NCBI GenBank assembly: GCA_964016885.1
Contig: CAXHJY010001285.1
Span: 1-64,000 of the forward strand
Direction of reading: 5' to 3'
Length of the DNA stretch: 64,000 nt
DNA from: Eledone cirrhosa
Lineage: Eukaryota
Shown here: in pieces, positions 38,121 to 64,000 of the stretch
Position numbering within the stretch: the stretch's first letter is position 1
Layout of the letters: each line of letters opens with the position of its first letter
Position numbers and translations under genes: made by a program
The notes under the pieces: model-generated
Told to the model about the DNA's origin: nothing
Database searches by the model: none
The model's input: the letters and a program-made list of their open reading frames with translations, nothing else

Positions 38121-38179
38121 TATATATATAAATGAAATAACAGGAGGCTGGACTGTTGTAAATCCTTGAAAGGTTTATT

Positions 38180-38237
38180 ATACTATGATCATTTCAATGA
38201 CCGGGTTCCATATGAATCCGGTGATATCATCAGGTAT
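38180..38237 (-). ncRNA. Type-I hammerhead ribozyme in a solo pLTR-like fragment (38130-38397)
   Basis: Minus strand: atac-CTGATGA-tatcaccggattcatatggaacccggtcatt-GAAA-tgatca-TA-gtat-aataaa. Confidence 0.85.
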
Positions 38238-38397
38238 TGGGATATAACAAAGGAATATGTAAAAACCCATGGGTCCCAAAAACCAGAGACAGAGGGGACG
38301 GCTAACTGATTAGCTTCTCAAAGTGTTGGCAACTGAAAAACTACCAATGAATATCTGGTGAGGGGGCGAAGGCTTACAATGCGCTACCACCACTCCG

Positions 38398-43300: not shown

Positions 43301-45950
43301 CACATTGGGGAAATCTAGTCGATCCCTGTCAGACAGTTGGAACTGGCTGAGTAGGTGCTTGAGGCTTTTGCACCCCCTGCTCCTATCGGCTACTCACTCC
43401 CACACAATCCCAGGGTGCGTCTACGATGCCATTCCAGTCCGCCGCTAATAGTAAAGGGCGAGACGTACCCAGAAAGGTCTCCAGGCGCCTAAAGAAGTCC
43501 GGTCGTCCGGCCCCTGTAGGAGCGTAGACGGCCAGCAGTCTAAAGGCACCACCTTCTCTACTGCTCACATCCAAGGCCACCAACTTACCGTCCGGGTCCC
43601 GGAAGATCGACCTTACCTCGAGATCCAGTCCTTTCCTAAACAGCACTGCCACTCCACCTCCCATTCTCGGCCTGCTAACAGATGCGAAGATCTGATAGTC
43701 GTCGAAATTGGGGGCTAGTGCGCGCGTATCGGAAATTCTGGTCTCGCTGACGGCAATCACATCCATTTCCAGCGACCTGAGGTGGTTGAGCAGGCGACCC
43801 TGCTTCCAGGTTGACACCATGCCACGAACATTTAAACTTACTACTCTTAATATGGCAATGTTGGCAAGCTAAAAGAGATAGGGAAGGTTAACTTATCTCC
43901 CGGGGTCTTGTGAAGGTCGGGTGGTTAGACCTCCATGGTTGGTGGGTTTCTTTTGGGAACCCCTTTAAAAGTCTCGATGTGGGTTTCCCATTCGGGGTTC
44001 CCACGTCTTGAGGAAAACTCTCTCGAATTTCTTTGAAGGAATCGAGTGACATATGGACCAGAAGAAAATCTTCAGGCACGCAAAATGTGCTCATTTCAAA
44101 AATTTCCCCTCTGTTTGAATGTCCTCGTTTCGTGCTAAGAGGGCCATCACTTTATCGTTGGCCCTTCTGACAAGCACGAAGTTTTTAACATTTTGTTGGT
44201 GTGGTTTTATTTGTTTTCGTTTTGGTGACTGTGGTGGTGTTGTTTCGGGTATGTCTGTGTTTGTTGTAGGTGTGGTGTCTGCAATTTCAGGTATTTGTGT
44301 GTTTATTTGTACTTGTATTTTTTTAGGTTGTTTGCGTTTCGGGGATTGTGGGGGTGGTGTCGATGTTGCTGTTGGTGATGATGTTATTGGGGAAGTGTTT
44401 GCGTTAGTGGTGTCTGTATTTTTCGTTGTGTATGTTTTTGTGTTTTGTTGGGGTTTCTTTTTTGTGAGTTTTCTCTGGGTTTTTTTTTGCACTTTTGGGT
44501 TTTCCTTCATCTTCGCTGCTGGAGGACAAAGGGTCTGTGGTTGTGAATGTCTCTGTGGCTGTGTGTGCGTTTATTGTTTTGTCTATGTGTATAATTGGGG
44601 GGGGGAGGGGCTTTCCTCGTTTTCCCCTTGGATTGGTTTTGGTGTTGGTGGTGGTCCGGCTGTTTCTGATGTTGGTGTTGTTTTTGGTGGCGGTGGTGCA
44701 GCTTTCCGCGCTGACACTGGCGTTGGCAACAAAGGAGGTTTGCGAACCCCTGCATTTTTTGCGCTGAGCGCAAAACTCTTGCAGATGCGTTGCTTCCCCG
44801 CAGACGAAGCAGTGTGGCCTTCTTTCCTAAGTGATTAGTTGGATTGTTGTCCCGTCCTGCAGGTTGGCAAAATCCGGGATGTTGTTCATGTCCTCCGGTT
44901 TCATTTGGAGAAGAATCTCCAAATCCATTCCGGACCAGTCTTCTCCCTCTGTCCTTTTGATATCCAGGTGAGTAGTGTCTGTCCCTTCCTCGATTACGCA
45001 TCCCAGCAGCCACCATATGTTCATTCCTGGTGGGATGCTGGGAATGCGGACCTTTACTGTCCTTTTACCCATGTAGGACGGGTGCATGATAATGCGTTCC
45101 GTTCTGCGGGGGGTCACCGAGTGCTTAATAGCGAGTGCCTCGGTTTTGAACAGTACCAAGAAGGTACCGAACTGTCTGGCTCTTGCTTTATACTCTATGT
45201 CACTTCCGATGCACTCCAAAGCAGCCTCGACCTCTGCTTGCAAGTTCCACTTTTCGTGTCTGTACCGAAATGCATCGAAAGTACATCGTCCTCCTTTGGA
45301 TGGCCGCTATTGCCCCGTCCGGGATGGTCAGGTTTGCCCAGGACTTCTCCCGTTTAATTAGCCTCCACGCCTGGGCCAACTATTCGTTTTTATCGCTAAT
45401 ATCAATATCCAATAAGTGCTTTGTTTTTGTTGCTGCTGCATCAAATGTGGTGCCTCTGATACTCTTGATGTTGGTGTTGTCGTTCTTGCTGTTATTGTTG
45501 TTGTGGTGGTGGTGGCGGTGGTGGCGGTGGCGGCGGTGGTGGTGATGTCGTTTTCAGATGATACTGCTGCTAAGACAGAAGGTTGTGATGGTAGCTTTTG
45601 AGTTTTGCATTCACATTCAGTAGAGTGGACGACAGGCATGTCTGTAGCCGTCGTAGTTGTGGTGAAATCTACAGTGGCTGCTTTTAAACTTTTGACCTGA
45701 ACGTCGTTTACCGTTTGAAGGTCGAAAATTTCCATTTCTTGGGAAGCGATTTATTTCGAAGTTTAAAAAAAAAAATCTGAATATTCGGGCTTAAAGCCCG
45801 AATATTGAGAGGTATCACTCCCTTGAAACCAAGATGTGTACCTTATGTTTCGTTAACGACAAGAAAATAGATAAAATGATACTTTAAAACAGCTTAAAGT
45901 TACGAACCTTTCCCCCCGCAGACTTGTACTGTCTTCACACATGTGCGTCC
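40386..45950 (-). mobile_element. Tx1/L1-type LINE #3, near full length, multiple frameshifts
   Basis: ORF1 ~45735-43890 with CFVCGEATHLQEFC (~44768-44812). ORF2 ~43860-40590: APE (VSETR, DWN), YWKLN, FRPITLLN, QSKAFDRVDH, HQGCPLS, AYADD, GGLGLP, zf-RVT. Confidence 0.93.
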
Positions 45951-46880
45951 ATAATAATAATATTAATAATAATTGTTTCTACTTTTGGCAGAAGGCCAGC
46001 TATTACCCCCAGTGTATTACTGGTACTTTATTTCATCGACCCCATAAGGATGAAAGGCAAAGTTAACCTCGGCGGGATTTGAACTCAGATTGGCAAGGGC
46101 CTCAGTGCGTCAAAGCATGACGTCCGACCCTGTACCGATACTGCCAATCCACCGCCCTTAATAATTATAATGATAATAATTGTTTCTACTATTGGCACAA
46201 GGCCAGCAATTAACCAGTACATTACTGGTACTTTATTTTATCGACCCCCTAAGGATGAAAGGCAAAGTTAACCTCTGCGGGATTTGAACTCAGAATGGCA
46301 AGGGCCGTAACTCTATACGTCAAAGTATGGCGTCCGACCCTCTACCGATACTGCCAATTCACCGTCTAATTGTTTCTACTTTTGGCACTAGGCCAGCAAA
46401 ACCCAGTGCATTACTGGTACTTTATTTTATCGACCCCATACGGATGAAAAGAAAAGTTATTTTGATTCCGGAGTCGGGCCAAAATAATAATAATGATGAT
46501 AATACAAGGACGATTTGCTAAGCATTCATTACATTTATAGATTGGTGACGTGCGTTTCGCTACATCAACTCACGGTTCGATTTTTATCAATCAGGCCCGA
46601 CTCCGGAATCAAAAGCTCGTCGGACATCTGCTGTTTTAATGACATTATTTCCCTTTCATCCTTACGGGGCCGATAAAATAAAGTACCAGTAATGTACTGG
46701 GTAATTGCTGGCCTTGTGCCAAATGTAGAAACAATTATATATATATATATATAATGAACTTTACGGTCGGAGATCAAAACCCGTCGAGGTTAACCTTGCA
46801 TTTATCGGGGTCGATAAAATAAAGTAACAATAATGCACTGGGTAATTGCTGACCTTTTGCTAAATGTAGAAACAATTATA
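45951..46880. mobile_element. SINE cluster: two full (-) copies (45951-46156, 46159-46366), a partial (-) copy (46367-46460) and two partial (+) copies (46650-46740, 46759-46880)
   Basis: Same consensus as 24625-24810; (taa)n tails. Confidence 0.9.
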
Positions 46881-48838: not shown

Positions 48839-49199
48839 TTTTGTGCTTGTATGTGTGCGTGTAAAATGTTAGGAAATCCTATATTACCAATTTTATCTCA
48901 TCGACATATTCAGATATTTTATATAGGCATGCATGCACACACACATGAAACATCTAATTGAATTCACATATTTTAAATATTTACTCTATTATAAACAAAC
49001 ATGTTCATTAACATGCATTTTCGCTATTGATTCATTGATTCTAAATCTAACGGGAGAGTAGAGTGTACATTTGGGGTCATCAGTCTAGCACACATATCCG
49101 GACAATAAGTGGTGTGGAATCCATTCCCACGCGTCTTGATACCCATTTGTCTCCGTTATAATAATGCATTAGCTAGAGATGGATACTAGGACAAAATTG

Positions 49200-50715
49200 A
49201 ATACATGCATATAGATAGAAACAATTACACATCCACTCATAGCCCCAAACATACCATAGACATAAACACTAACATACACACAATTATCGGTAATGAAAAT
49301 AATAGAGTTACTCGAACCCGAAACAAAAAAGACAGGATAAACCCGGCTACAAATAGATATAACTTAAATACTCCCATAAAGTTAAATAGGAGAGTAAGGT
49401 CCTGTTCAGTTCTGTGGTACAATCCACCACACTCCTTAGGACTACAAAAAAAACATAGCTTTTTTAACGCATTAGATAAATGTTTTCCTAAATCACACAA
49501 ATACAGTCAAATCTTTAATCGAAACACAATTAAACTTTCTTACTTGACAACCAAAAGCATAGCCTAGATTACAGCGAAGATTAACAATAGAAATCTGGGA
49601 ATCAAACAAAGAGATAACTCATAATAGCAAGCACAGAAACACTGGTAGAGTAAACAGCAACTCGAATAACAAGGATAATATATAAATAATATAAACCAAC
49701 GGACACACAGACAAAAATGGTAACATAAATAATTGCAATTGCAGCAATCATAACAGTTTCCCAATGAAAAATAACTATTTAAATGAAAATATTGTTTACG
49801 AATATGAAGTAAGAAGGATAATAAAACTTTAAGAAATATTGGTGCAACTTCTACTAGGTTTAAGGAAAGGTGGTATAACTATTACGACTTATTTAAAAGA
49901 GCTGATAAAAGATCTAGCACAGCCTTGTCGGAACTGATTAGGTCGCTAAAAAATATACAAGTGGAATACTCCCTTTCTTGGTCAAAACTCTCACATGCTT
50001 TTCCATATATGAATGGATCTATATCTAAGGGGTTTGACCTCTGTACTACAGAGACTTTGCACATCATAAATAGTAGGCAAACCCTCTGAAATGTTTAATT
50101 CTTGTTTACACAAAATTAAGAAGACATTTCGGAGTGTATATAGTTAAAACTTCAGTAGATAATGTTAAATAGATCATCAAATAATTAATTAAACATTCAT
50201 AAATATATCGATACATAATAACATCAGCATCAAAGTACAAATATCAAAAATTAGAATTTGTATCTAAGTGAATAATATCTATTATAAAAATATTTTGAAA
50301 TACAGTTTCTACTTGCCCTACTATAGTGACCTAAATCAAGTGACGAATCCGGTAACTTGAACCCTAGCCAGTTCACAAGCAGCAACGCCAATCTCACGCA
50401 CATATAAGAACTGCTACTTGAGGAATTCAGACATATGCTTACTGGTCGGCGAAGCGAATAACACGTATGACCGGTGACATATCAAAGGAACTTTACATCT
50501 CGTTTGTATTTTTGTCTGAAGAGAACGCGTATGGGAGTTGTTATACAACTGCCCTACGTCTTTGAAATACGTATAAGAAAATAAATATGGATGTATGAAC
50601 GAAACCGCCTTTCTTGTTTATTATAAAACTCTGGATGAACAAAAACCGTGGATTGCTTCATATCTGTTAAGAAAACGTCGGCAGATTTTCAATCAACCAA
50701 CTTTCTTCAAATTAT
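49200..50715 (+). mobile_element. Decayed Hydra-like PLE 3' half with pLTR
   Basis: VLWYNPPHS..FFNALDKCFPKSHKYSQIFNRNTIKLSY; IGATSTRFKERWYN..KRSSTALS..SW..DLC. Confidence 0.85.
50508..50582 (+). ncRNA. Type-I hammerhead ribozyme
   Basis: ttttgt-CTGAAGA-gaacgcgtatgggagttgttatacaactgccctacgtcttt-GAAA-tacgta-TA-agaaaa. Confidence 0.8.
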
Positions 50716-51069: not shown

Positions 51070-51805
51070 GAGCAAATATTGCATCAAGAAAATTAAGACT
51101 TCGGCGTGTTGAGAAAAGGAATTTATTTGCTTTAACATATGTTTCTGTGTCTATTATACATTTTGTACATATGCTGCCTACAATATATATTGTTCAATCA
51201 TATGCAATACTTAATTATTTATTACAGTTCATCAAAAATCCTATAATAGAGTTATTCAACTATTCACTACGGTAATAGCTGTGGTGGAAAGGCTAGTCGT
51301 ATTGTGTCTCTATTTTGTATTCTATGGAATTTGTGTGTAGGAGGAAAGGGTTCGTCTATAAGTTTGAAGAAGAAATAGGATAGCTTAGTAATTACCAGAT
51401 CATTGTGCAGGGGATTATATCGTAGGTATGATTTTGTGCGGGACCTCCTTGGTGTTTTCTTATTTGCAGTATTATTATTTGTCCTGCCACTGTGGGGCTT
51501 TGAGTCGTTGGTATTTAAATTTGCAAATTTTGAATGATATACTTGTGATGTTTCCCATTGGGCTGGTTGGAGTTTCCTCCGCATGGTGTATCTGGAAGAA
51601 ATCTTAGTGGTTCATCATAACCCGCACTAAGTAGAGTAGCGTTGTAGTAGTCTGCATGTGTGTTGTAAGAGGATTCAGAGGCAGACAATTTAGAGATCCT
51701 AAGGGATATATTTTTAGCAATGGAGCTAGTGATAGTCGTAGGATGGTTAGACCAACGATTAATATGTTTTAAGTCATCGTTATGTATAGGAAAGAGTCGG
51801 GACAC
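51070..51805 (-). mobile_element. Decayed Hydra-like PLE fragment
   Basis: SNHPTTI..RISKLS..YYNATLLSAGY; YNPL..FFKLID..FPPTHKFHRI.NRDTIRL; GAAA-catatg-tta remnant at ~51132-51144. Confidence 0.8.
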
Positions 51806-53987: not shown

Positions 53988-54206
53988 CGTGTGTGTGTGT
54001 GTGTCTTATTGTAAGTATGATGGCATTAAAACTTAGTCAGAGAAATATTTTTAGGGAAAGAAAGAAAAAATGTGTTTTTTATATGTTGTATTTATATATA
54101 TATTTGTTTGTTTTTTGTAGTGTCGTGCGTGTATGTGTGTTTTCGTTTGTTTGTTTGTCACAAAAATTTTGTGGTGGGGAATTAAAAAACAGAGTACAGT
54201 ATTAGT

Positions 54207-54393
54207 AATTGTTTCTACTTTAGGCACAAGGCCAGCAATTACCCAGTGCATTACTGGTACTTTATTTTATCGACCCCGTAAGGATGAAAGGCAAAGTCAA
54301 CCTCGGCGAGATTTGAACTCAGATCGTAAAGGGACGTAACTATGCTTGAAAGCATGGCGTCCGACCCTCTACCGATACTGCCAATCCACCGCC
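54207..54393 (-). mobile_element. tRNA-derived SINE with 18-bp TSD
   Basis: Same family as 24625; TSD gagtacagtattagtaat at 54192-54209 and 54396-54413. Confidence 0.92.
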
Positions 54394-54499
54394 CTGAGTA
54401 CAGTATTAGTAATGGCTTCCAATCTGGAATTTGGATAGAAGTTATTTTGGAAAGTGTATAAGTAATTGTGTTGTTTGTGTGTGTGTGTGTGTGTGTGTA

Positions 54500-55378: not shown

Positions 55379-55864
55379 TTTAAATACACACATACACACA
55401 CACACGCACATAAATATCTGTGTGTGAGAGTCCTGGATTCAATAATAGATAACCACAGTAAGTAATTTACTCAATAAATTAATAGAGTATATACAACACA
55501 ATTCAATCTAAAATATCTTCTACATGACTAGAACTGTTCCATTCAAAGGTAACAGTTATAGTCCTGTAGTCCTTTAGAGGTCATTTCTAGATTATATATA
55601 TATATATATATATATACATGTAAAGTTAATATTTAAAATTGTTGGGTTACAACTAGTAAATATTTATAACTGATATAAAAGCACTCGACAAATACTTGGA
55701 GTATATTTACAATATTAAATAAATATAGTGTAAGTTTTATAAATACTAATACATTAAAACATAGGGTTTTCTACGCCTCGAATATGTCTGGCTATTTTTA
55801 AATTTTTCTCTCTCTATATCTCTCTATATCTCTCTATATATCTCCCTTACATTAATACTTGAGC

Positions 55865-55899
<35 letters not shown>

Positions 55900-56266
55900 A
55901 TGCATCATTGATACACTTACTCAAAATGACCTCCCACTACCTAATTTTTCTATATCTATATTTATATATGTATCTATCTCTATTTCCTCTCTCTCTCTAT
56001 ATATATATATATATCTCTTTCGGTCTCTTTACATGAAGCTCTTCGCTTTATCTATTTTTCCATCTCTCTATTTTGTCCCATGCATTTCTTCTTTTTCTTC
56101 TTTTTCTTCCTTTTCTTCGTTTTGTCTTTCTTTCTTTCTTATTTCCCTCTTTTCTCTCTCTCTTTCTTTCTCTCTGTATTTTCACTGCTAGAGTGAACCT
56201 CTTCAAATGAAGTTGATGTTTATTACGGTATGTCGAATATATTTATCTATAAAACTGTTTATATTG

Positions 56267-56332
56267 TATTTTGTCTGATGAAGGCATAGCATATTGTTAA
56301 TATGATATCCCCGAAATATATATAATGAAATA
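56267..56332 (+). ncRNA. Type-I hammerhead ribozyme, 5' pLTR
   Basis: tattttgt-CTGATGA-aggcatagcatattgttaatatgatatcccc-GAAA-tatata-TA-atgaaata. Confidence 0.85.
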
Positions 56333-56512
56333 GATATGGTTTTATAAATATAGTTTTCCATTTATTTAATATTGTAAATATACTCCAAGTATTTGTCGAG
56401 TGCTTTTATATCAGTTATAAATATTTACTAGTTGTAACCCAACAATTTTAAATATTAACTTTACATGTATCTTGCTCCAATACTGTTGAGCGCTTTATAT
56501 TATAACTGAAAA

Positions 56513-58725
56513 ATGGAATTCTTTAAGATTACTTCCTCTCTAAAAGACATACCTCTACCTAGAAACAAAGACTTTGTAAAACAACTAATAGATAAATCTG
56601 ACTCTTTTATAAGGAGAATCAGGTGGCGTGCATTCCACTTTGATAAATTTAATGCAGACGAAAATATCTCGGACTTAAACAAAGTTTTCAAATCTAAAAG
56701 AAATCCACCCCCTAACAAACTTTTATCTGACTTTGAAAACGATATAATTTCTATCATACAAGGGGTCAAATTCAAGAGAAACTTTAAAGGCCAGGAATAT
56801 CTGAAAGGCATTAAGGATAACATTGAGAGCTTAGAGAAAACTGAGAAGATCTTGGTGAAATCTGACAAGACCAACAACCTCTATGGAGTGCAGAAAGACA
56901 TGTATAATGGCCTCATACTGAAAGAGCTGAGGAAAAAATACAAGGTAGCAGATAAGACCGAACTTGTGAAAATGAATGTTGAAGCATCTTGTATAATGCA
57001 TGAGTTGGAAATTGAGAACAGAACACAACCTTTCGTGCCCAGGAAACCGAAGATCAATATGAAGGACCACAAGAGGAATTTTGAGATTGACCTGCCAGTT
57101 AGATTAATCGCACCTTCAAAATCGGACCTGGGCAAATTAAGCAAAAACATTCTTGACAGGGTGATACTGCAAATTAAGAACTTGGATTATGTATCTAACC
57201 TGAGCTTGTGGAAGGGAACTGGAGAGGTTGTTGAGTGGTTTAGGCAAATTAAATATGACAATAATAATAGGTTTATTCAACTTGATATAGCTAACTATTA
57301 TTCTTCTATTACCCCTAGTCTACTAAATAAGGCACTAAATTACGCATTCAAACATACGGACCTAACTAGCAAAGAAATGCATATTATATTATCGGCTAGG
57401 AAAACTTTGATAGAATTTGATGACAAATTATGGACCAGAGCAGATAGAGATAGCAATTTTGACATAACTATGGGATCTTCCGACTCAGCTCAGTAACTGA
57501 CCTTGTGGGCTTATTTTTAATCAATTCGCTACATAGGAAAATACCTGGTACTACCGGAGGTTTATATAGGGATGACATGCTTTTACTTATTAATAATAAT
57601 AACCCTGAACTAAATAGAAAATGTAAACAAATTACAAAATTTTTTAATTACTTTAACCTTAAAATAGAAATTGAGAACAACCATAGAATAGTCAATTTCC
57701 TAGATATAACATTAAATCTCAACACATGTCTCCACTATCCTTTTCACAAGTTGAATGAAAACTTAAACTATGTCAACTTTAACTCTAACCACCCCAGATC
57801 TGTCAAAAACACTATAGTAAACTCAGTCCAAAAACGTATCTCTAGGATCTCGTCGAATAGAAAGATTTTTGACGAAAAGGCCCAATACTATAATGATGCA
57901 CTAGCTAGGGCAGGGTATGCTGATAAGATTGTGTACATAGATAATGATAAACAAACTAAACAAAGTAACAACTTTTTTAATTATGGCAACAACATTAACA
58001 ACTATAATAGAAAGCATTACAATAATTCCAAAGGACAAAAAAGAAATAGAACTAGGAACATAATTTGGTTTGCCCCCCCTTTCTCACTAAACATTAAAAC
58101 CCACATCGCTAAATTATTTTTCAAAGCTCTTGATAATCGCTTCCCTAGAACACATAGGTACCACTCAATCTTCAATAGGCATACAATTAAATTAACCTAC
58201 TCATCCACCAAAAATTTAGCACAAAATATTAATAGAATAAATAATAGGAACTTAAAACCTACTGATAATAGCATAAATAATATACAAGTTAACAAATGTA
58301 ACTGTAGAGATAGATCTAAATGTCCGTTAAATAACAACTGCTTAGTTAAAAATATAGTATACAATTGTAATGTTAATACTGACTCTAATTCTTTTAACTA
58401 CGTCGGTTCCACATCGACGGAATTTAAACTTCGCTATAATAACCACAAGAACTCTTTCACAGATCCAAATAAAAAATCTTCAACGGCACTATCAGGTGTA
58501 CTCTGGCAACTTAAGCTAGATAACGTTAGATATTCGACGGCTTGGAATATAGTCTCAAGAGGGATTCCTTTTAATTCATCCTCTGAGACATGTGACCTCT
58601 GCGCAGAGGAGATAGTCTTTATACTAAAATCTAAAAATTCCCTTAACCTACGGACAAATTTATTCAGTTGTTGCAAACATAGATTAAACTCAACGTTTAA
58701 ATATAAATTTAAATTTAAAATGTAG
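56513..58725 (+). pseudogene. PLE RT and GIY-YIG polyprotein (~737 aa) with one 1-bp frameshift at ~57493
   Basis: RRIRWRA, VKSDKT, KDHK..VRLI.P, LDIANYYSSI, FDITMGSSDSAQ|(V)TDLVG, GGLYRDD, CNCRDRSKC, YVGST, CDLC, CCKH. Restoring one G (cag gta act) joins the two ORFs. Confidence 0.92.
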
Positions 58726-59878
58726 TATATTTAGTTTGATTTATATTTATATGAGAACTAGCCGATAAATCTTTTGATTCCTAAATCTTTGATTCCCTCT
58801 TTTTACTCTTTTTATTGTTTATTTTATTTTATTTATTTTTATTTTTATTTTTATTTTTATTTTTATTTTTATTTTTATCTAAACATTCCTCATGAAAAAT
58901 TAAGCTACCCTAAAAGCCGATGCTCCAAATTTTCTGAATTAACCTTACACTTGATAAACTTATATATTAAATATAGGAACATATGTAGACATTATTGGAC
59001 ATCATAATCTTTTTTGCGATATTCCTTGCTAGATGTGATTTGATAGATAATTTTTGGCTTTGTCTTGTAGTGAACTTGGCAATATATTGTCAATTAACCT
59101 TGAAGGGTTGTTCTTTGTGGTTTATTTTTATTTTCATTTTTATTTTTATTTTCATTTTTATTTTTATTTTTATTTTTATTCTTTTAGTATTGTAGTATTC
59201 TATAATATTTTTATATTTTTATTTTTTATTTTTTATATGTAAATTTTTTTTACATGTAAATTTTTATTTTTAAATTTTTATTTTTAATATTTTTAATATT
59301 TTTATATGTAAAGTTTTAATACGTAATATTTTTAATACGTAGTATTTTTAATATGCAATATTTTTATTATGTAATATTCTTTCGTAATATTCTTTTTTAG
59401 TTTTCTATTCTATATTTTTATATTTTTATATATTTTTACTTATTATCATTATTATTGTTATCTCTGCTTATAATATAATATATATTTTCGATTAGTATAT
59501 TGAAATCTGCTCTCTATTTCTGCTTGATAGATAATCTTGTAGAGTAATCGCAAGAATAATAATACGCTCAAATTTTTATACCACATTGAGAATGTTTTCC
59601 GGTAACTTTGAATTTGCGGAGTGAATCAGTTGGATTCACATAGACATATGAATTTTTTTTTTAAAAACTAAACATAAGATAATGAATTTTCACGCATTGT
59701 GAATACTTGTTTCATTCAGGAATACTGATATTTACAATATAGTGTAAGTTTTATAAATACTAATACATTAAAACATAGGGTTTTCTACGCCTCGAATATG
59801 TCTGGCTATTTTTAAATTTTTCTCTCTATATATCTCTCTATATCTCTCTATATATCTCCCTTACATTAATACTTGAGC

Positions 59879-59913
<35 letters not shown>

Positions 59914-60274
59914 ATGCATCATTGATACACTTACTCAAAATGACCTCCCACTACCTAATTTTTCTATATCTATATTTATATATGTATCTATCTCTATTTC
60001 CTCTCTCTCTATATATATATATCTCTTTCGGTCTCTTTACATGAAGCTCTTCGCTTTATCTATTTTTCCATCTCTCTATTTTGTCCCATGCATTTCTTCT
60101 TTTTCTTCTTTTTCTTCCTTTTCTTCGTTTTGTCTTTCTTTCTTTCTTATTTCCCTCTTTTCTCTCTCTCTTTCTTTCTCTCTGTATTTTCACTGCTAGA
60201 GTGAACCTCTTCAAATGAAGTTGATGTTTATTACGGTATGTCGAATATATTTATCTATAAAACTGTTTATATTG

Positions 60275-60340
60275 TATTTTGTCTGATGAAGGCATAGCAT
60301 ATTGTTAATATGATATCCCCGAAATATATATAATGAAATA
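60275..60340 (+). ncRNA. Type-I hammerhead ribozyme, 3' pLTR
   Basis: Same sequence as 56267-56332. Confidence 0.85.
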
Positions 60341-60378
60341 GATATGGTTTTATAAATATAGTTTTCCATTTATTTAAT

Positions 60379-60477
<99 letters not shown>

Positions 60478-60819
60478 CTGCGTGTGTGTGTGTGTGTGTA
60501 TGTGTCTATATGTGTGTGTGTGCGTGTGTGTGTGTTTATATATATATACACATGCACAGGCGGTAATGTAGCAAAGTAAACAATGTACTCACGGTGAATA
60601 CATTTAAACTGAGAGGAGGGAGAAAAAGAGGGTACAAATATGTACAAAGACATATATATATATATTTATATATATATACTTAGGTTAATAGGAGTTAGGT
60701 ATTGTATACCCGTGTCCCATTAAGGTATTGGCAGCATAATAATTAGCTCTATGCTTTGGAGCAGAGCCGTATATATGATAAAGAACACAAGAGCGTCTAC
60801 AACATCAAAAGATTTTTAT

Positions 60820-60868
60820 TGGCTTACAATGTTTCTTCCTTACGTAACCGTAGGATTCGTCAGAGCTA
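60820..60868 (-). ncRNA. Type-I hammerhead ribozyme
   Basis: Minus strand: tagct-CTGACGA-atcctacggttacgtaaggaa-GAAA-cattg-TA-agcca-ataaa. Confidence 0.75.
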
Positions 60869-62030
60869 TAAAAGGGCTTTCATTGGTATTATGGACTCTA
60901 CCAACCAAACATTCAAGAACAAAGAGTAAAGAGAGTAAAGAGCAAAAGCAGGGGACGATAAGTCTAATTTTATTGCGGGAGGGTGGGGTTTGGGTCCTTG
61001 TTTACTAGCTGTGGTCATATTCATTCCCGGGAGTCGAGTGGTTAGTTGAGCCATAGATGGGGTGGCGTCGATAGTATGGTGCAGAGGGTGTGCGGAGGCT
61101 ACACACACACAAAAGACATACAATATATATATAATGGAGGAGGTAATTAGAAATGGAAAAAGCGTAATAATAATAATCTATAATTAATAATGTATAATAA
61201 GGCATGGGGAAGATTACACTATAATAAGGTATAAAAGTAAGTATAAGGTAAAATATAAAGGAGGATAAAAGTGAAAATAAGAATAAAGATAAAAAAATAT
61301 ATATAAAAAATATATAGAGAATATATAAAGAAATATAAGCAAGTATTAGGAGGGGAAAACACAATGTAAAAAAACAGATCTTTTCAAACAAAAATATTAT
61401 AAATATAGGGGAAGAAAACGGGATAGAGAAATATAATCAAATGTGATTATTTGAGAGAATATAAGATGTTAATAGTTATGTCAAGTTTATACATCCTAAT
61501 AATAAACAATCTGTATATCAGAGTTACACATCCTTCAATTCACCTGCAGGTTCAAGCCACGTGGCATAGTCCATTGTTCATCCGTGCGGCCTTGTGCGTT
61601 TGTTTTTGACACCACAGCAGATGCACAAGTTCGTAAATTCCAATGCAGATAGAAATCTATTTTTGCTCACCCAGACATTGACGGAGGATCCAATATTCCT
61701 AGTTCAATATGTGTGTGGTGTTATTTTGGTCGCGCAAATCAATCAGTTGGTTCAATATTATGGAGTATGGTTTTCTGGTCTTCGTAACAGTGTCACTGGT
61801 TGTATATCTCGAAATCACAAGGATCACAGTACTCCGGTTTGGTGTGATTATCGGTCATCCAACTATGTTGTCGGTGGTTGGATTCAATTCTATTGCCCCC
61901 AACGTAGAACTTTGGTGTCGATTGAACATTAACGAGGCAGAGTGAGATCGCATCTGTCGTGCAAAACTGTACGCAATGAAATTCTTCGTCTTCGTTTCAT
62001 CCGGGTCCAGCAGTCACGTGCAAGAACCGC

Positions 62031-62310: not shown

Positions 62311-63343
62311 CTATATGTATTTCAACTCAAAAAATTCAATTGACTCGCTTATTGATGTTATATCTCTGTTGCTCCGATGTGCATGTTGTGGTGTTCTGGT
62401 CATGTTTAGTATTCACTGTGTTTTGCCATTACCTTGGAATGTGATGTTATGGTCATCAATAGTCCGGCAAGCGCATTCTTCTCTTATATTGTGGAGAATG
62501 GTGTTCTGGTCCTCAGTAAACATTTGGGTCAGCAGGAGGGGTGGTGGTTCTCAGTTTCAACTGCGACAATACATATGTGTTACTCCACATATCGTGCTCC
62601 TCTCAAAGAGGAGTATTATAGGAGGAATTCATGCCAAATACCACATATAGAGAAGACTTCTACAGAAAAAATATACATACATACACACACATATACATAT
62701 CATACACACACACATACACATATACACATACATATACATATACACATACATATCACATATACACATACACACAGTATAATACAGATGCATACAATATACA
62801 TATATATATATACATACAATATACATGTATACAATACACGCCCACATGCATGCATGCATGCACACACGTACGCACACATACATACCGATGTCTGTGTGTG
62901 TGTGTGTGTGTGAGAGAGAGAAAAGGAGGATACACACACACACATACACACAGACACACACATACGCACACACACAAACACCAACCTTGTAGGGGACTGT
63001 TCCACCCTCAGGATACCTATATATCTGGGTTATGGGTTGGGGGGAAGCCATAGTCAAGGAGGGGTATGTCTAGGTGGGGGTTGCATAATATATGTTACGT
63101 CTATGTGCTAGGTTTAAAATAGAAGAAGGAACTCAGGATTTTGTGTTGGCAAGAGGAGAAAATTTCCGATTTCCTGTTAAGCAGGTTCAGTTTAGAGTGT
63201 ATTATGGCATGGCATTCCAGTAAACACAGGTCACAACTCCCGCTCTGCGGTCGGTATGGCGTGGATCTAGTAAGCTTACTCTTTACTCTTTGTTCTTGAA
63301 TGTTTGGTTGGTAGAGTCCATAACACCAATCAAACCCCTCTTA

Positions 63344-63392
63344 TAGCTCGGACGAATCCTACGGTTACGTAAGGAAGAAACATTGTAAGCCA
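63344..63392 (+). ncRNA. Hammerhead motif with U4>G mutation
   Basis: tagct-CGGACGA-atcctacggttacgtaaggaa-GAAA-cattg-TA-agcca. Confidence 0.65.
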
Positions 63393-63454
63393 ATAAAAAT
63401 CTGTTGATGTTGTAGACGCTCTTGTGTTCTTTATCATATATTTATATATATATA

Positions 63455-64000
63455 TGGAAAAAACGAAACGAAATTTCATTTCTCACTGTTAGTACGGCTG
63501 TTACTTAAATATAAGTATGTATACGTACATACATATATGTATAGAGACGTACAGTAGTATGTATATACATACATGCACACATATATTTATGTACGTATGG
63601 GTTTACCGAACATTTATTATAATGCTCGGTTTGTTTGTAAACAAACAGCCCGAATTAAGCCGTACAGTGTTTAGCAACCATCGTTGCCCTTTGTTCAACA
63701 CTGACAAAGGAACGATGTACTAGTTTCAAGCTTATTAGCTATCGTCAGCATCGTATACCTTCCTGCCAGATGATTGAACGTCTGAAAGTATATACTTTCC
63801 TTATGCATATTAACGGCTGAGCAGCCTAATTTGCATATCGAGTGAGTTAGTCGGGCGGGCGCACCGAATACGATAAATGTCAGTGTTGAACAAAAGGGCA
63901 ACGATGGTTGTTAAACACTGTACGACTTAATTCGGGCTGTTTGTTTACAAACAGACCGAGTATTATAATAAGTGTTCTGTAAACCCATACATACATATAA
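63455..64000. mobile_element. MITE/fold-back element with long inverted arms (runs off the window end)
   Basis: 63590-63706 vs 63878-64000 are imperfect reverse complements; starts after a TA run; related to 30-502. Confidence 0.7.

Follow-up and report, generated by a model that had tools for sequence, protein, structure and literature searches.

The partial tandem, the inverted arm and the tail are textbook features of Penelope-like elements (PLEs), the direct repeats of which are known as pseudo-long terminal repeats (pLTRs) (PMC8557442, PMC3846280). In the Hydra clade of endonuclease-positive (EN+) PLEs, a reverse transcriptase (RT) is followed by a C-terminal GIY-YIG-type endonuclease (EN); the protein bears RW(K/R), DKT, CxCX5C and CxxC/CxH signatures and lacks CCHH, and the elements carry a hammerhead motif near the 3' end, target (TA)n and form partial tandems with an inverted arm (PMC8557442). 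All of these properties are shared by element A, a PLE insertion at positions 55614-60384 of the 64,000-nucleotide (nt) stretch of Eledone cirrhosa DNA analyzed here (contig CAXHJY010001285.1, positions 1 to 64,000, hereafter the window). How pLTRs are regenerated is a standing question: Schostak et al. saw no obvious mechanism in 2008 (PMC2377424), and the function of PLE hammerheads was called unclear in 2021 (PMC8557442). Cervera and De la Pena proposed in 2014 that transcripts are cleaved, ligated into circles and retrotranscribed over more than one unit (PMC4209133), a model restated in a 2019 review (PMC6765202). The protein of the Anolis carolinensis Poseidon element, described by Frangieh et al. 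in 2024, is a predicted dimer that primes both target strands from two internal starts that bound the tail, and it needs RNA located 3' of those starts (PMC11167929).

Element A is a new Hydra-clade member that is unusual only in its 4-kb unit and its 94-nt tail. The unit measures 4008 nt, owing to a long 3' untranslated region (UTR), as compared to 1.1-3.0 kb in the 27 listed Hydra consensus sequences, many of them incomplete, and a tail of 30-40 bp is quoted for PLEs (PMC8557442); the description of the clade as generally <3 kb does not extend to it. The long strand of the insertion spans 4663 nt, or 1.16 units, and is framed by (TA)n on both sides. Between the two pLTRs there is only a single substitution plus a gap of 6 nt, each within a microsatellite tract, so that the insertion is young. 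An earlier sequence-only reading of this locus had called it a very young, full-length, Hydra-like PLE with near-identical direct repeats of ~650 bp. The repeats (655 and 649 nt), the clade and the recent age all hold, as does the full length; the element is not intact, its open reading frame (ORF) being split by a one-base frameshift. The features of element A are as follows.

55593-55613, no strand: (TA)n target, left flank.
55614-55724, minus strand: inverted arm, which begins at start site 2 and copies 56360-56470, comprising the 94-nt tail and 17 nt from the pLTR; 111/111 complementary.
55680-55702, minus strand: hairpin motif 1 within the inverted arm, mirror of 56382-56404; covariance-model match at 55677-55710 (E 0.42).
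55703-55715, plus strand: 13-nt word, also present at 59728-59740; the AAT overlap that forms the actual joint occupies 55722-55724.
55722-56376, plus strand: 5' pLTR, 655 nt, ending at start site 1.
56267-56332, plus strand: minimal hammerhead of type I with its core at 56275 and a palindromic stem III loop, predicted to be cut after 56324.
56377-56470, plus strand: tail, 94 nt, from start site 1 (56376) to start site 2 (56470).
56382-56404, plus strand: hairpin motif 1, ACTC-loop-GAGT-GCT, 5 nt past start site 1.
56474-56494, plus strand: hairpin motif 2, GCTC-loop-GAGC-GCT, 3 nt past start site 2.
56513-57496, plus strand: 5' part of the ORF, 327 amino acids (aa), with RWR, DKT and the first RT motifs, ending at the frameshift.
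57496-58725, plus strand: 3' part of the ORF, 409 aa, with YRDD, the CxCX5C linker and a GIY-YIG-type endonuclease with CxxC and CxH.
58726-59735, plus strand: long AT-rich 3' UTR outside the pLTR.
59736-60384, plus strand: 3' pLTR, 649 nt, ending at start site 1, without either hairpin motif.
60275-60340, plus strand: second hammerhead, identical to the first, core at 60283, predicted cut after 60332.
60385-60411, no strand: (TA)n target on the right flank, with (GT)n beyond it.

The two ends of element A, at 56376 and 56470 in unit coordinates, lie 5 and 3 nt before the stems of two copies of a hairpin-like motif. The reading that we favor, with moderate confidence, is that a young, frameshifted Hydra-clade PLE entered (TA)n with its ends placed by these clade-wide motifs, each of which was likely bound by RT and likely fixed one of two internal, target-primed starts on opposite DNA strands, the RNA having probably been uncut or rejoined at the hammerhead.

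The motif, which follows the pattern RCTC-loop-RTHGAGYRCT and lies between the hammerhead and the ATG, was tested on 78 related loci from metagenome contigs. Setting aside 34 loci in which no ORF start was located and 8 more with <120 nt upstream left 36 leaders. These held 67 motif matches as compared to a mean of 4.0 in shuffled sequences (maximum of 11 in 200 shuffles); 24 of the leaders possessed at least two matches and 8 possessed one. When only the 3' half of the motif was demanded, a perfect 4-nt upstream partner was present in 63 of 73 matches, with 8 expected. A covariance model built from 8 motif instances, 7 of them from the 78 tested loci, returned 93 matches in these loci; 86 were on the ORF strand, and none fell in coding DNA, though coding DNA furnishes 70% of the bases. 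Placement is likewise regular, with motif 1 positioned 39-59 nt after the predicted hammerhead cut and with motif 2 following motif 1 at a distance of 44-92 nt (23 rows). By eye, the motif is found twice before the ATG of the Hydra-1_Ajap consensus, once in the tails of Hydra-2_Ajap and Hydra-2_Amil, and as a variant in Hydra-1_Crog.

The positions of insertion ends follow the motif. Among 34 repeat rows, 17 ended at a contig end and one was inside an ORF, leaving 16 loci with real 3' divergence; the ends of L047 and L074, which the automatic anchor or model had missed, were re-measured. In 9 of these 16 loci the 3' end lies 2-5 nt before a stem, for which the chance per junction is 4.3% (P about 4e-9), or 10.2% among positions ending in TA/AT (P about 7e-6). 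A set of 25 hammerhead-proximal ends running into (TA)n contained exactly one motif in 10 cases (92-139 nt from the cut) and two motifs in none. The remaining 15 carried no motif by pattern, most of them ending 31-66 nt from the cut; several of these are probably false hammerhead calls, and the loop of copy D, one of three further arm-bearing copies in the window, exceeds the pattern limit. These three copies are:

22527-25557, plus strand: sibling copy B, ~90% identical in the ORF; an inverted tail arm reaching from start site 2 to start site 1, followed by a 5'-truncated direct copy that terminates at start site 1.
25586-27321, plus strand: related copy C; an inverted arm that begins at start site 2 and extends past the hammerhead cut, followed by a direct copy that terminates at start site 1.
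10721-11224, no strand: related stump D, palindromic; a minus arm with the tail and hairpin 1, a plus arm ending 4 nt before hairpin 1, and the whole hammerhead in both arms.

In all four arm-bearing window copies (A-D), site 2 marks the beginning of the inverted arm and site 1 the end of the direct part. The tail is the spacing between the two motifs, and neither end retains the motif lying just beyond it.

Several observations count against this reading. No motif was found in 4 of the 36 leaders, and none was evident by eye in the Hydra-1_Obim consensus. Two of the 16 loci end 8 and 11 nt before a stem, and 5 do not fit: the ends of L003, L004 and L012 fall within the hammerhead or ahead of it, that of L005 is close to a contig end and ambiguous, and that of L010 is ~10 nt past the one motif visible there. 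The P values given above overstate the case because 5 of the 16 loci helped to reveal the motif and several loci are related families; moreover, metagenome contigs of multi-copy elements can be chimeric. Covariation is scant, consisting of one of the four pairs in one of 85 sequences together with A-U and U-A closing pairs in 5 of 63. The hairpins also fold only slightly better than shuffled sequences (z -1.6 and -1.3), and with folding this weak the motif may act as DNA, in the form of an endonuclease or promoter element, rather than as RNA. Given the scant covariation and weak folding, an RNA role for the motif is one that we infer.

Taken together, a model for the insertion of element A emerges. 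The endonuclease would nick both strands of (TA)n. One cDNA would begin at site 1 via TA-like microhomology and copy 4663 nt, furnishing the body and the 5' pLTR; the other would begin at site 2, copy the 94-nt tail and stop at or shortly past site 1. Joining of the two cDNA ends through gapped microhomology would then generate the inverted arm. Each motif would position a reverse transcriptase, and the tail would correspond to the distance between motifs. Protein binding, the form of the RNA and the order of events are proposed here on the strength of the sequence, the motifs and the junction positions, which are observed. The Poseidon system offers the nearest parallel: two internal starts bounding the tail, extension of both strands, AT-rich targets and a need for RNA 3' of the starts would all be common to both elements. 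The Poseidon starts are located inside the ORF at an AC-rich stem-loop described as not homologous to the target (PMC11167929), whereas in element A the presumed starts lie ahead of the ATG and finish in TA-like microhomology, with a copy of the duplicated motif after each.

A consequence of the model is that each motif, being 3' of its own start, would be lost from that end of the new copy. The linear transcript of a lone copy could not keep restoring the ends, as motifs would be needed downstream of the ORF; if the motif is required in cis, the family would thus need a template of more than unit length. The proposal of Cervera and De la Pena already included more-than-unit retrotranscription; the available text of that paper contains no start-site signal and no ratchet argument, and reports no circle for an autonomous PLE (PMC4209133). 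The family and the circle hypothesis were therefore known, and what is added here is a duplicated start-site motif that appears to support a more-than-unit template without proving a hammerhead-made circle. We did not find the twin motif described in the literature searched, which covered few subscription journals, and the words 'hairpin' and 'stem-loop' have no occurrence in the available main text of PMC8557442. The motif would be a short cis-signal common to the clade, from which the ends of insertions are predicted with an accuracy of a few bases, and a defined start signal makes the question of pLTR regeneration raised by Schostak et al. testable. PLE reverse transcriptases are the sister group of telomerase; by this kinship, a hairpin that sets the template start is of evolutionary interest.

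The joint of the inverted arm bears on how the two cDNAs may have met. The sequence-only reading had placed the inversion junction at a microhomology. The shared 13-nt word is real; it is the only match of at least 11 nt between the inverted arm and the monomer, and such a word would occur nearby by chance at only 0.45% of positions. The joint itself lies elsewhere: the inverted arm continues to 55724 and the direct part begins at 55722, leaving a 3-nt overlap, AAT, 9 nt beyond the word. Because the word is improbable by chance while the joint lies 9 nt past it, the join in element A is best read, from its sequence, as gapped microhomology. The centre of the inversion is no palindrome. An interpretation of the 13-nt word as a conserved RNA pairing was rejected, as copy B has only 8 nt in common at the matching place (by eye). 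The extent of the inverted arm past site 1 varies, from about 0 nt in copy B to 17 nt in element A and about 75 nt in copy C.

Copy C shows two further irregularities. At its right end (27320-27420), the last ~20 bases are re-copied two to three times after a short TA run, resembling stuttering or restarted reverse transcription at start site 1. In its inverted arm (25728-25748), four bases are missing from the TA palindrome beside the predicted cut, which reflects either microsatellite slippage or a scar of crossing cut RNA.

We next turn to the hammerheads. The earlier reading of one hammerhead in each pLTR, with cuts after 56324 and 60332 placed 4008 nt apart and with a stem III consisting solely of the palindrome TATATA, is confirmed. 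They had also been described as intact: the two are indeed identical and their core and stems are recognizable, while stem II is internally mismatched and Rfam returns no match (no hammerhead at the gathering score in the window, and none at E<=5 over 56200-56560). Shuffled sequences fold equally well (z 0.31). The palindromic stem III loop is perfect in 7 of 7 aligned window hammerheads, in four different sequences (TATATA four times, TACGTA, TGCGCA and TGATCA). Despite the Rfam and folding results, this conservation of core and palindromic loop across seven copies makes the hammerhead motif credible. The conserved core, long stem II and palindromic stem III of a dimer-acting minimal PLE hammerhead are all present in element A, which, like the elements of Cervera and De la Pena (PMC4209133), carries a minimal type I hammerhead in both pLTRs. 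The AT-only palindrome of its stem III differs from the AC..GT type of the Hydra clade (PMC8557442).

What the hammerheads imply for the template is a separate matter. Cleavage had been expected to leave a linear RNA devoid of the last ~50 nt of the element. This does not follow: the 3' boundary is located 52 nt past the predicted cut, and a cut monomer would carry those 52 nt at its 5' end. It had further been claimed that only a circular or multimeric RNA would keep the 3' boundary in continuity. A cut linear monomer is indeed ruled out as the template, because no scar marks either of the two places at which the long strand of element A passes the cut, and the arms of copy D both pass it too. 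A circle or multimer is not forced by the hammerheads, because the 3' boundary would be just as continuous in an uncut read-through RNA. An origin of the insertions by priming from the 3' terminus of cut RNA was rejected as well, none of the 16 measurable 3' ends being located at the cut (that of L012 is a few nt before it). The twin motifs are the better argument for a more-than-unit template. That template would be a ligated circle, a tandem-array transcript or the product of pLTR-mediated strand transfer, three routes between which the sequence does not decide.

The circle, which we hold as a tentative possibility, would arise by cutting of the paired hammerheads as a dimer and ligation of the 4008-nt monomer, with rolling-circle copying from the motif-defined starts producing partial tandems. 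The junction of such a circle would be identical in sequence to the pLTR. Palindromic stem III loops in every aligned window hammerhead suggest selection for dimer pairing, and the steady position of the cut, 39-59 nt before motif 1, means that both repeats inherit it. Hammerhead-bearing retrozymes do form circles (PMC7229834). Such non-LTR (non-long-terminal-repeat) elements resemble element A in their type I hammerheads in tandem units and are thought to be PLE-mobilised; they are 170-400 nt long and non-coding, with canonical, efficient hammerheads and demonstrated circles, whereas element A is 4 kb long and codes for RT-EN (PMC7229834; bioRxiv 10.64898/2026.07.22.740005). The 5' boundaries of two ORF-bearing loci, L031 (2960-3020, 5470-5560) and L072 (2930-2980), precede start site 2 by ~8 nt, as would be expected of a template copied once round (by eye; other readings are possible); L031 also ends at start site 2 and is close to exactly one unit long. 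These observations, and that on L020 below, are single cases from short-read contigs and possibly chimeric. Against the circle, hammerhead mutants of Poseidon inserted normally in vitro, with uncut RNA as the main substrate, though this assay used short linear RNA and is blind to circles (PMC11167929). RNA-seq of the anole element gave no reads beginning or ending at the cut in the available account (PMC11167929), Naiad PLEs without canonical hammerheads build the same pLTRs, tail and inverted arm (PMC8557442), and minimal PLE hammerheads cleave poorly even as dimers (PMC4209133). Terminal repeats of metagenome contigs were rejected as evidence for circles, since collapsed partial tandems give the same assembly. 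A search of sequencing runs returned 13 rows with part of element A, with no RNA run among the matches listed.

A more specific version of the circle, about which we are doubtful, has the duplicated GCTC-loop-GAGCACT RNA hairpin loading an RT dimer that primes both target strands. With the hairpin omitted from each end, the family would survive only by way of a hammerhead-cut, ligated, unit-length circle (4008 nt here) copied more than once round. If true, a single mechanism would account for pLTR regeneration as well as for the tail and the inverted arm.

Transcription of tandem arrays in the genome could also supply linear templates, the arrays being renewed by insertion of the element into its own TA-like start sites; this, too, we regard as possible in a tentative way. 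It is the scenario of PMC11167929. In L020 (455-505), the tail and motif 2 are separated by a (TA)9 tract located precisely at start site 2, which represents either self-insertion or TA added by the reverse transcriptase. At three other loci (L051, 2260-2400; L075, 1380-1518; L076, 2350-2570), two different PLE families have their ends in tail-to-tail contact at one TA-rich site. Element A itself was not built by self-insertion, because it is seamless across 56376/56377 and both of its flanks are plain (TA)n with no older copy, and the 64-kb window contains no complete tandem array.

Strand transfer, which strikes us as rather doubtful, would proceed from an uncut linear RNA running from pLTR to pLTR. 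Copying would begin from the motifs near its 5' end, run out at the 5' terminus of the RNA and jump by pLTR homology to the 3' pLTR, in the manner of long terminal repeat (LTR) elements, with the hammerhead incidental or regulatory. As no cleavage is needed, the Naiads would be covered as well, and transcription of the Drosophila Penelope begins within the upstream pLTR (PMC2377424). Copy D and other short stumps look like failed transfers. So does L039 (704-800), which has the layout of element A with the difference that the start of its 5' pLTR coincides with the edge of hammerhead stem I, at a short palindrome. On the other side, the 5' pLTR of element A reaches 603 nt upstream of the cut, such that a second jump may be needed. 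PLE reverse transcriptases are not known to possess RNase H, which also counts against strand transfer, and no paper proposing strand transfer for PLEs was found in the literature searched.

It is unlikely that the motif acts as DNA, as an endonuclease or promoter element beside which the ends fall since an integration intermediate was cut there, with the inverted arm made by self-priming on an antisense template: Craig et al. did ascribe the tail to endonuclease resolution (PMC8557442), Arkhipova et al. did propose antisense self-priming (PMC3846280), and a near-invariant sequence with weak covariation fits a protein-DNA site, whereas the 4-nt arms stay complementary across very different loop lengths (63/73), the inversion centre of element A is not palindromic and the tail ends of the anole element are RNA start sites (PMC11167929).

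Returning to the template-start reading that we favor, the placement of element A in the Hydra clade of EN+ PLEs is supported by its protein. The ORF region (56513-58725) is broken by a one-base frameshift near 57494, with TAA at 57494-57496, which is either real or an assembly error. Both halves match RT-endonuclease proteins at 31-42% identity, including one from Argonauta hians, and align end to end with homologues of 670-920 aa, the RT preceding a C-terminal GIY-YIG endonuclease. RWR is found at residue 37, in the RW(K/R) column, and SDKT at residue 117 (Hydra-type change of DKG to DKT). The linker CNCRDRSKC fits CxCX5C, and there is no CX2-5CxxC match. The endonuclease core possesses one Cys only and no CCHH; CDLCAEE (CxxC before E) and CKH (CxH after N) are both present. 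[quoted passage not shown] The hammerhead in the pLTR and the insertion into (TA)n are Hydra-clade traits as well. By these sequence diagnostics, element A belongs to the Hydra clade. A Naiad or Chlamys PLE was ruled out by the C-terminal endonuclease, by DKT in place of DKA and by the presence of the hammerhead; the 4-kb unit with an RT-EN ORF also sets element A apart from the short non-coding tandem unit of a retrozyme or circular-RNA retroelement.

Profile and structure searches were less informative. Pfam assigned 0 families to either ORF half, and across 13 family members it gave a weak RVT_1 match in one and a weak GIY-YIG match in one. A PDB sequence search returned one weak match, to a retron RT (E 0.0035). 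The search of representative proteins yielded 295 proteins at E<=1e-30, which shows only that the family is widespread.

The remainder of the window is dense in PLE remnants or hammerhead-bearing ends that belong to other families (14371-14560, 14853-16540, 38163-38253, 49157-50712 and 51288-51793). A 400-nt insert at 63588-63997 has inverted arms of 105-120 nt and a hammerhead-like motif on the minus strand (63748-63718). Downstream of element A, 163-nt inverted arms at 60771-60933 and 63279-63441 are 96% complementary and 2345 nt apart, possibly marking a DNA transposon or another inverted insertion. A repeat family of ~190 nt, probably a short interspersed nuclear element (SINE), is represented at 24625-24818, 45946-46879 and 54199-54395, with one copy inside the 3' UTR of copy B. 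Positions 1000-12000 form an extremely AT-rich, TA-type microsatellite tract with a GC content of 7-15%, within which 3141-7657 and 6218-10725 constitute a 4.6-kb internal duplication at 92% identity.

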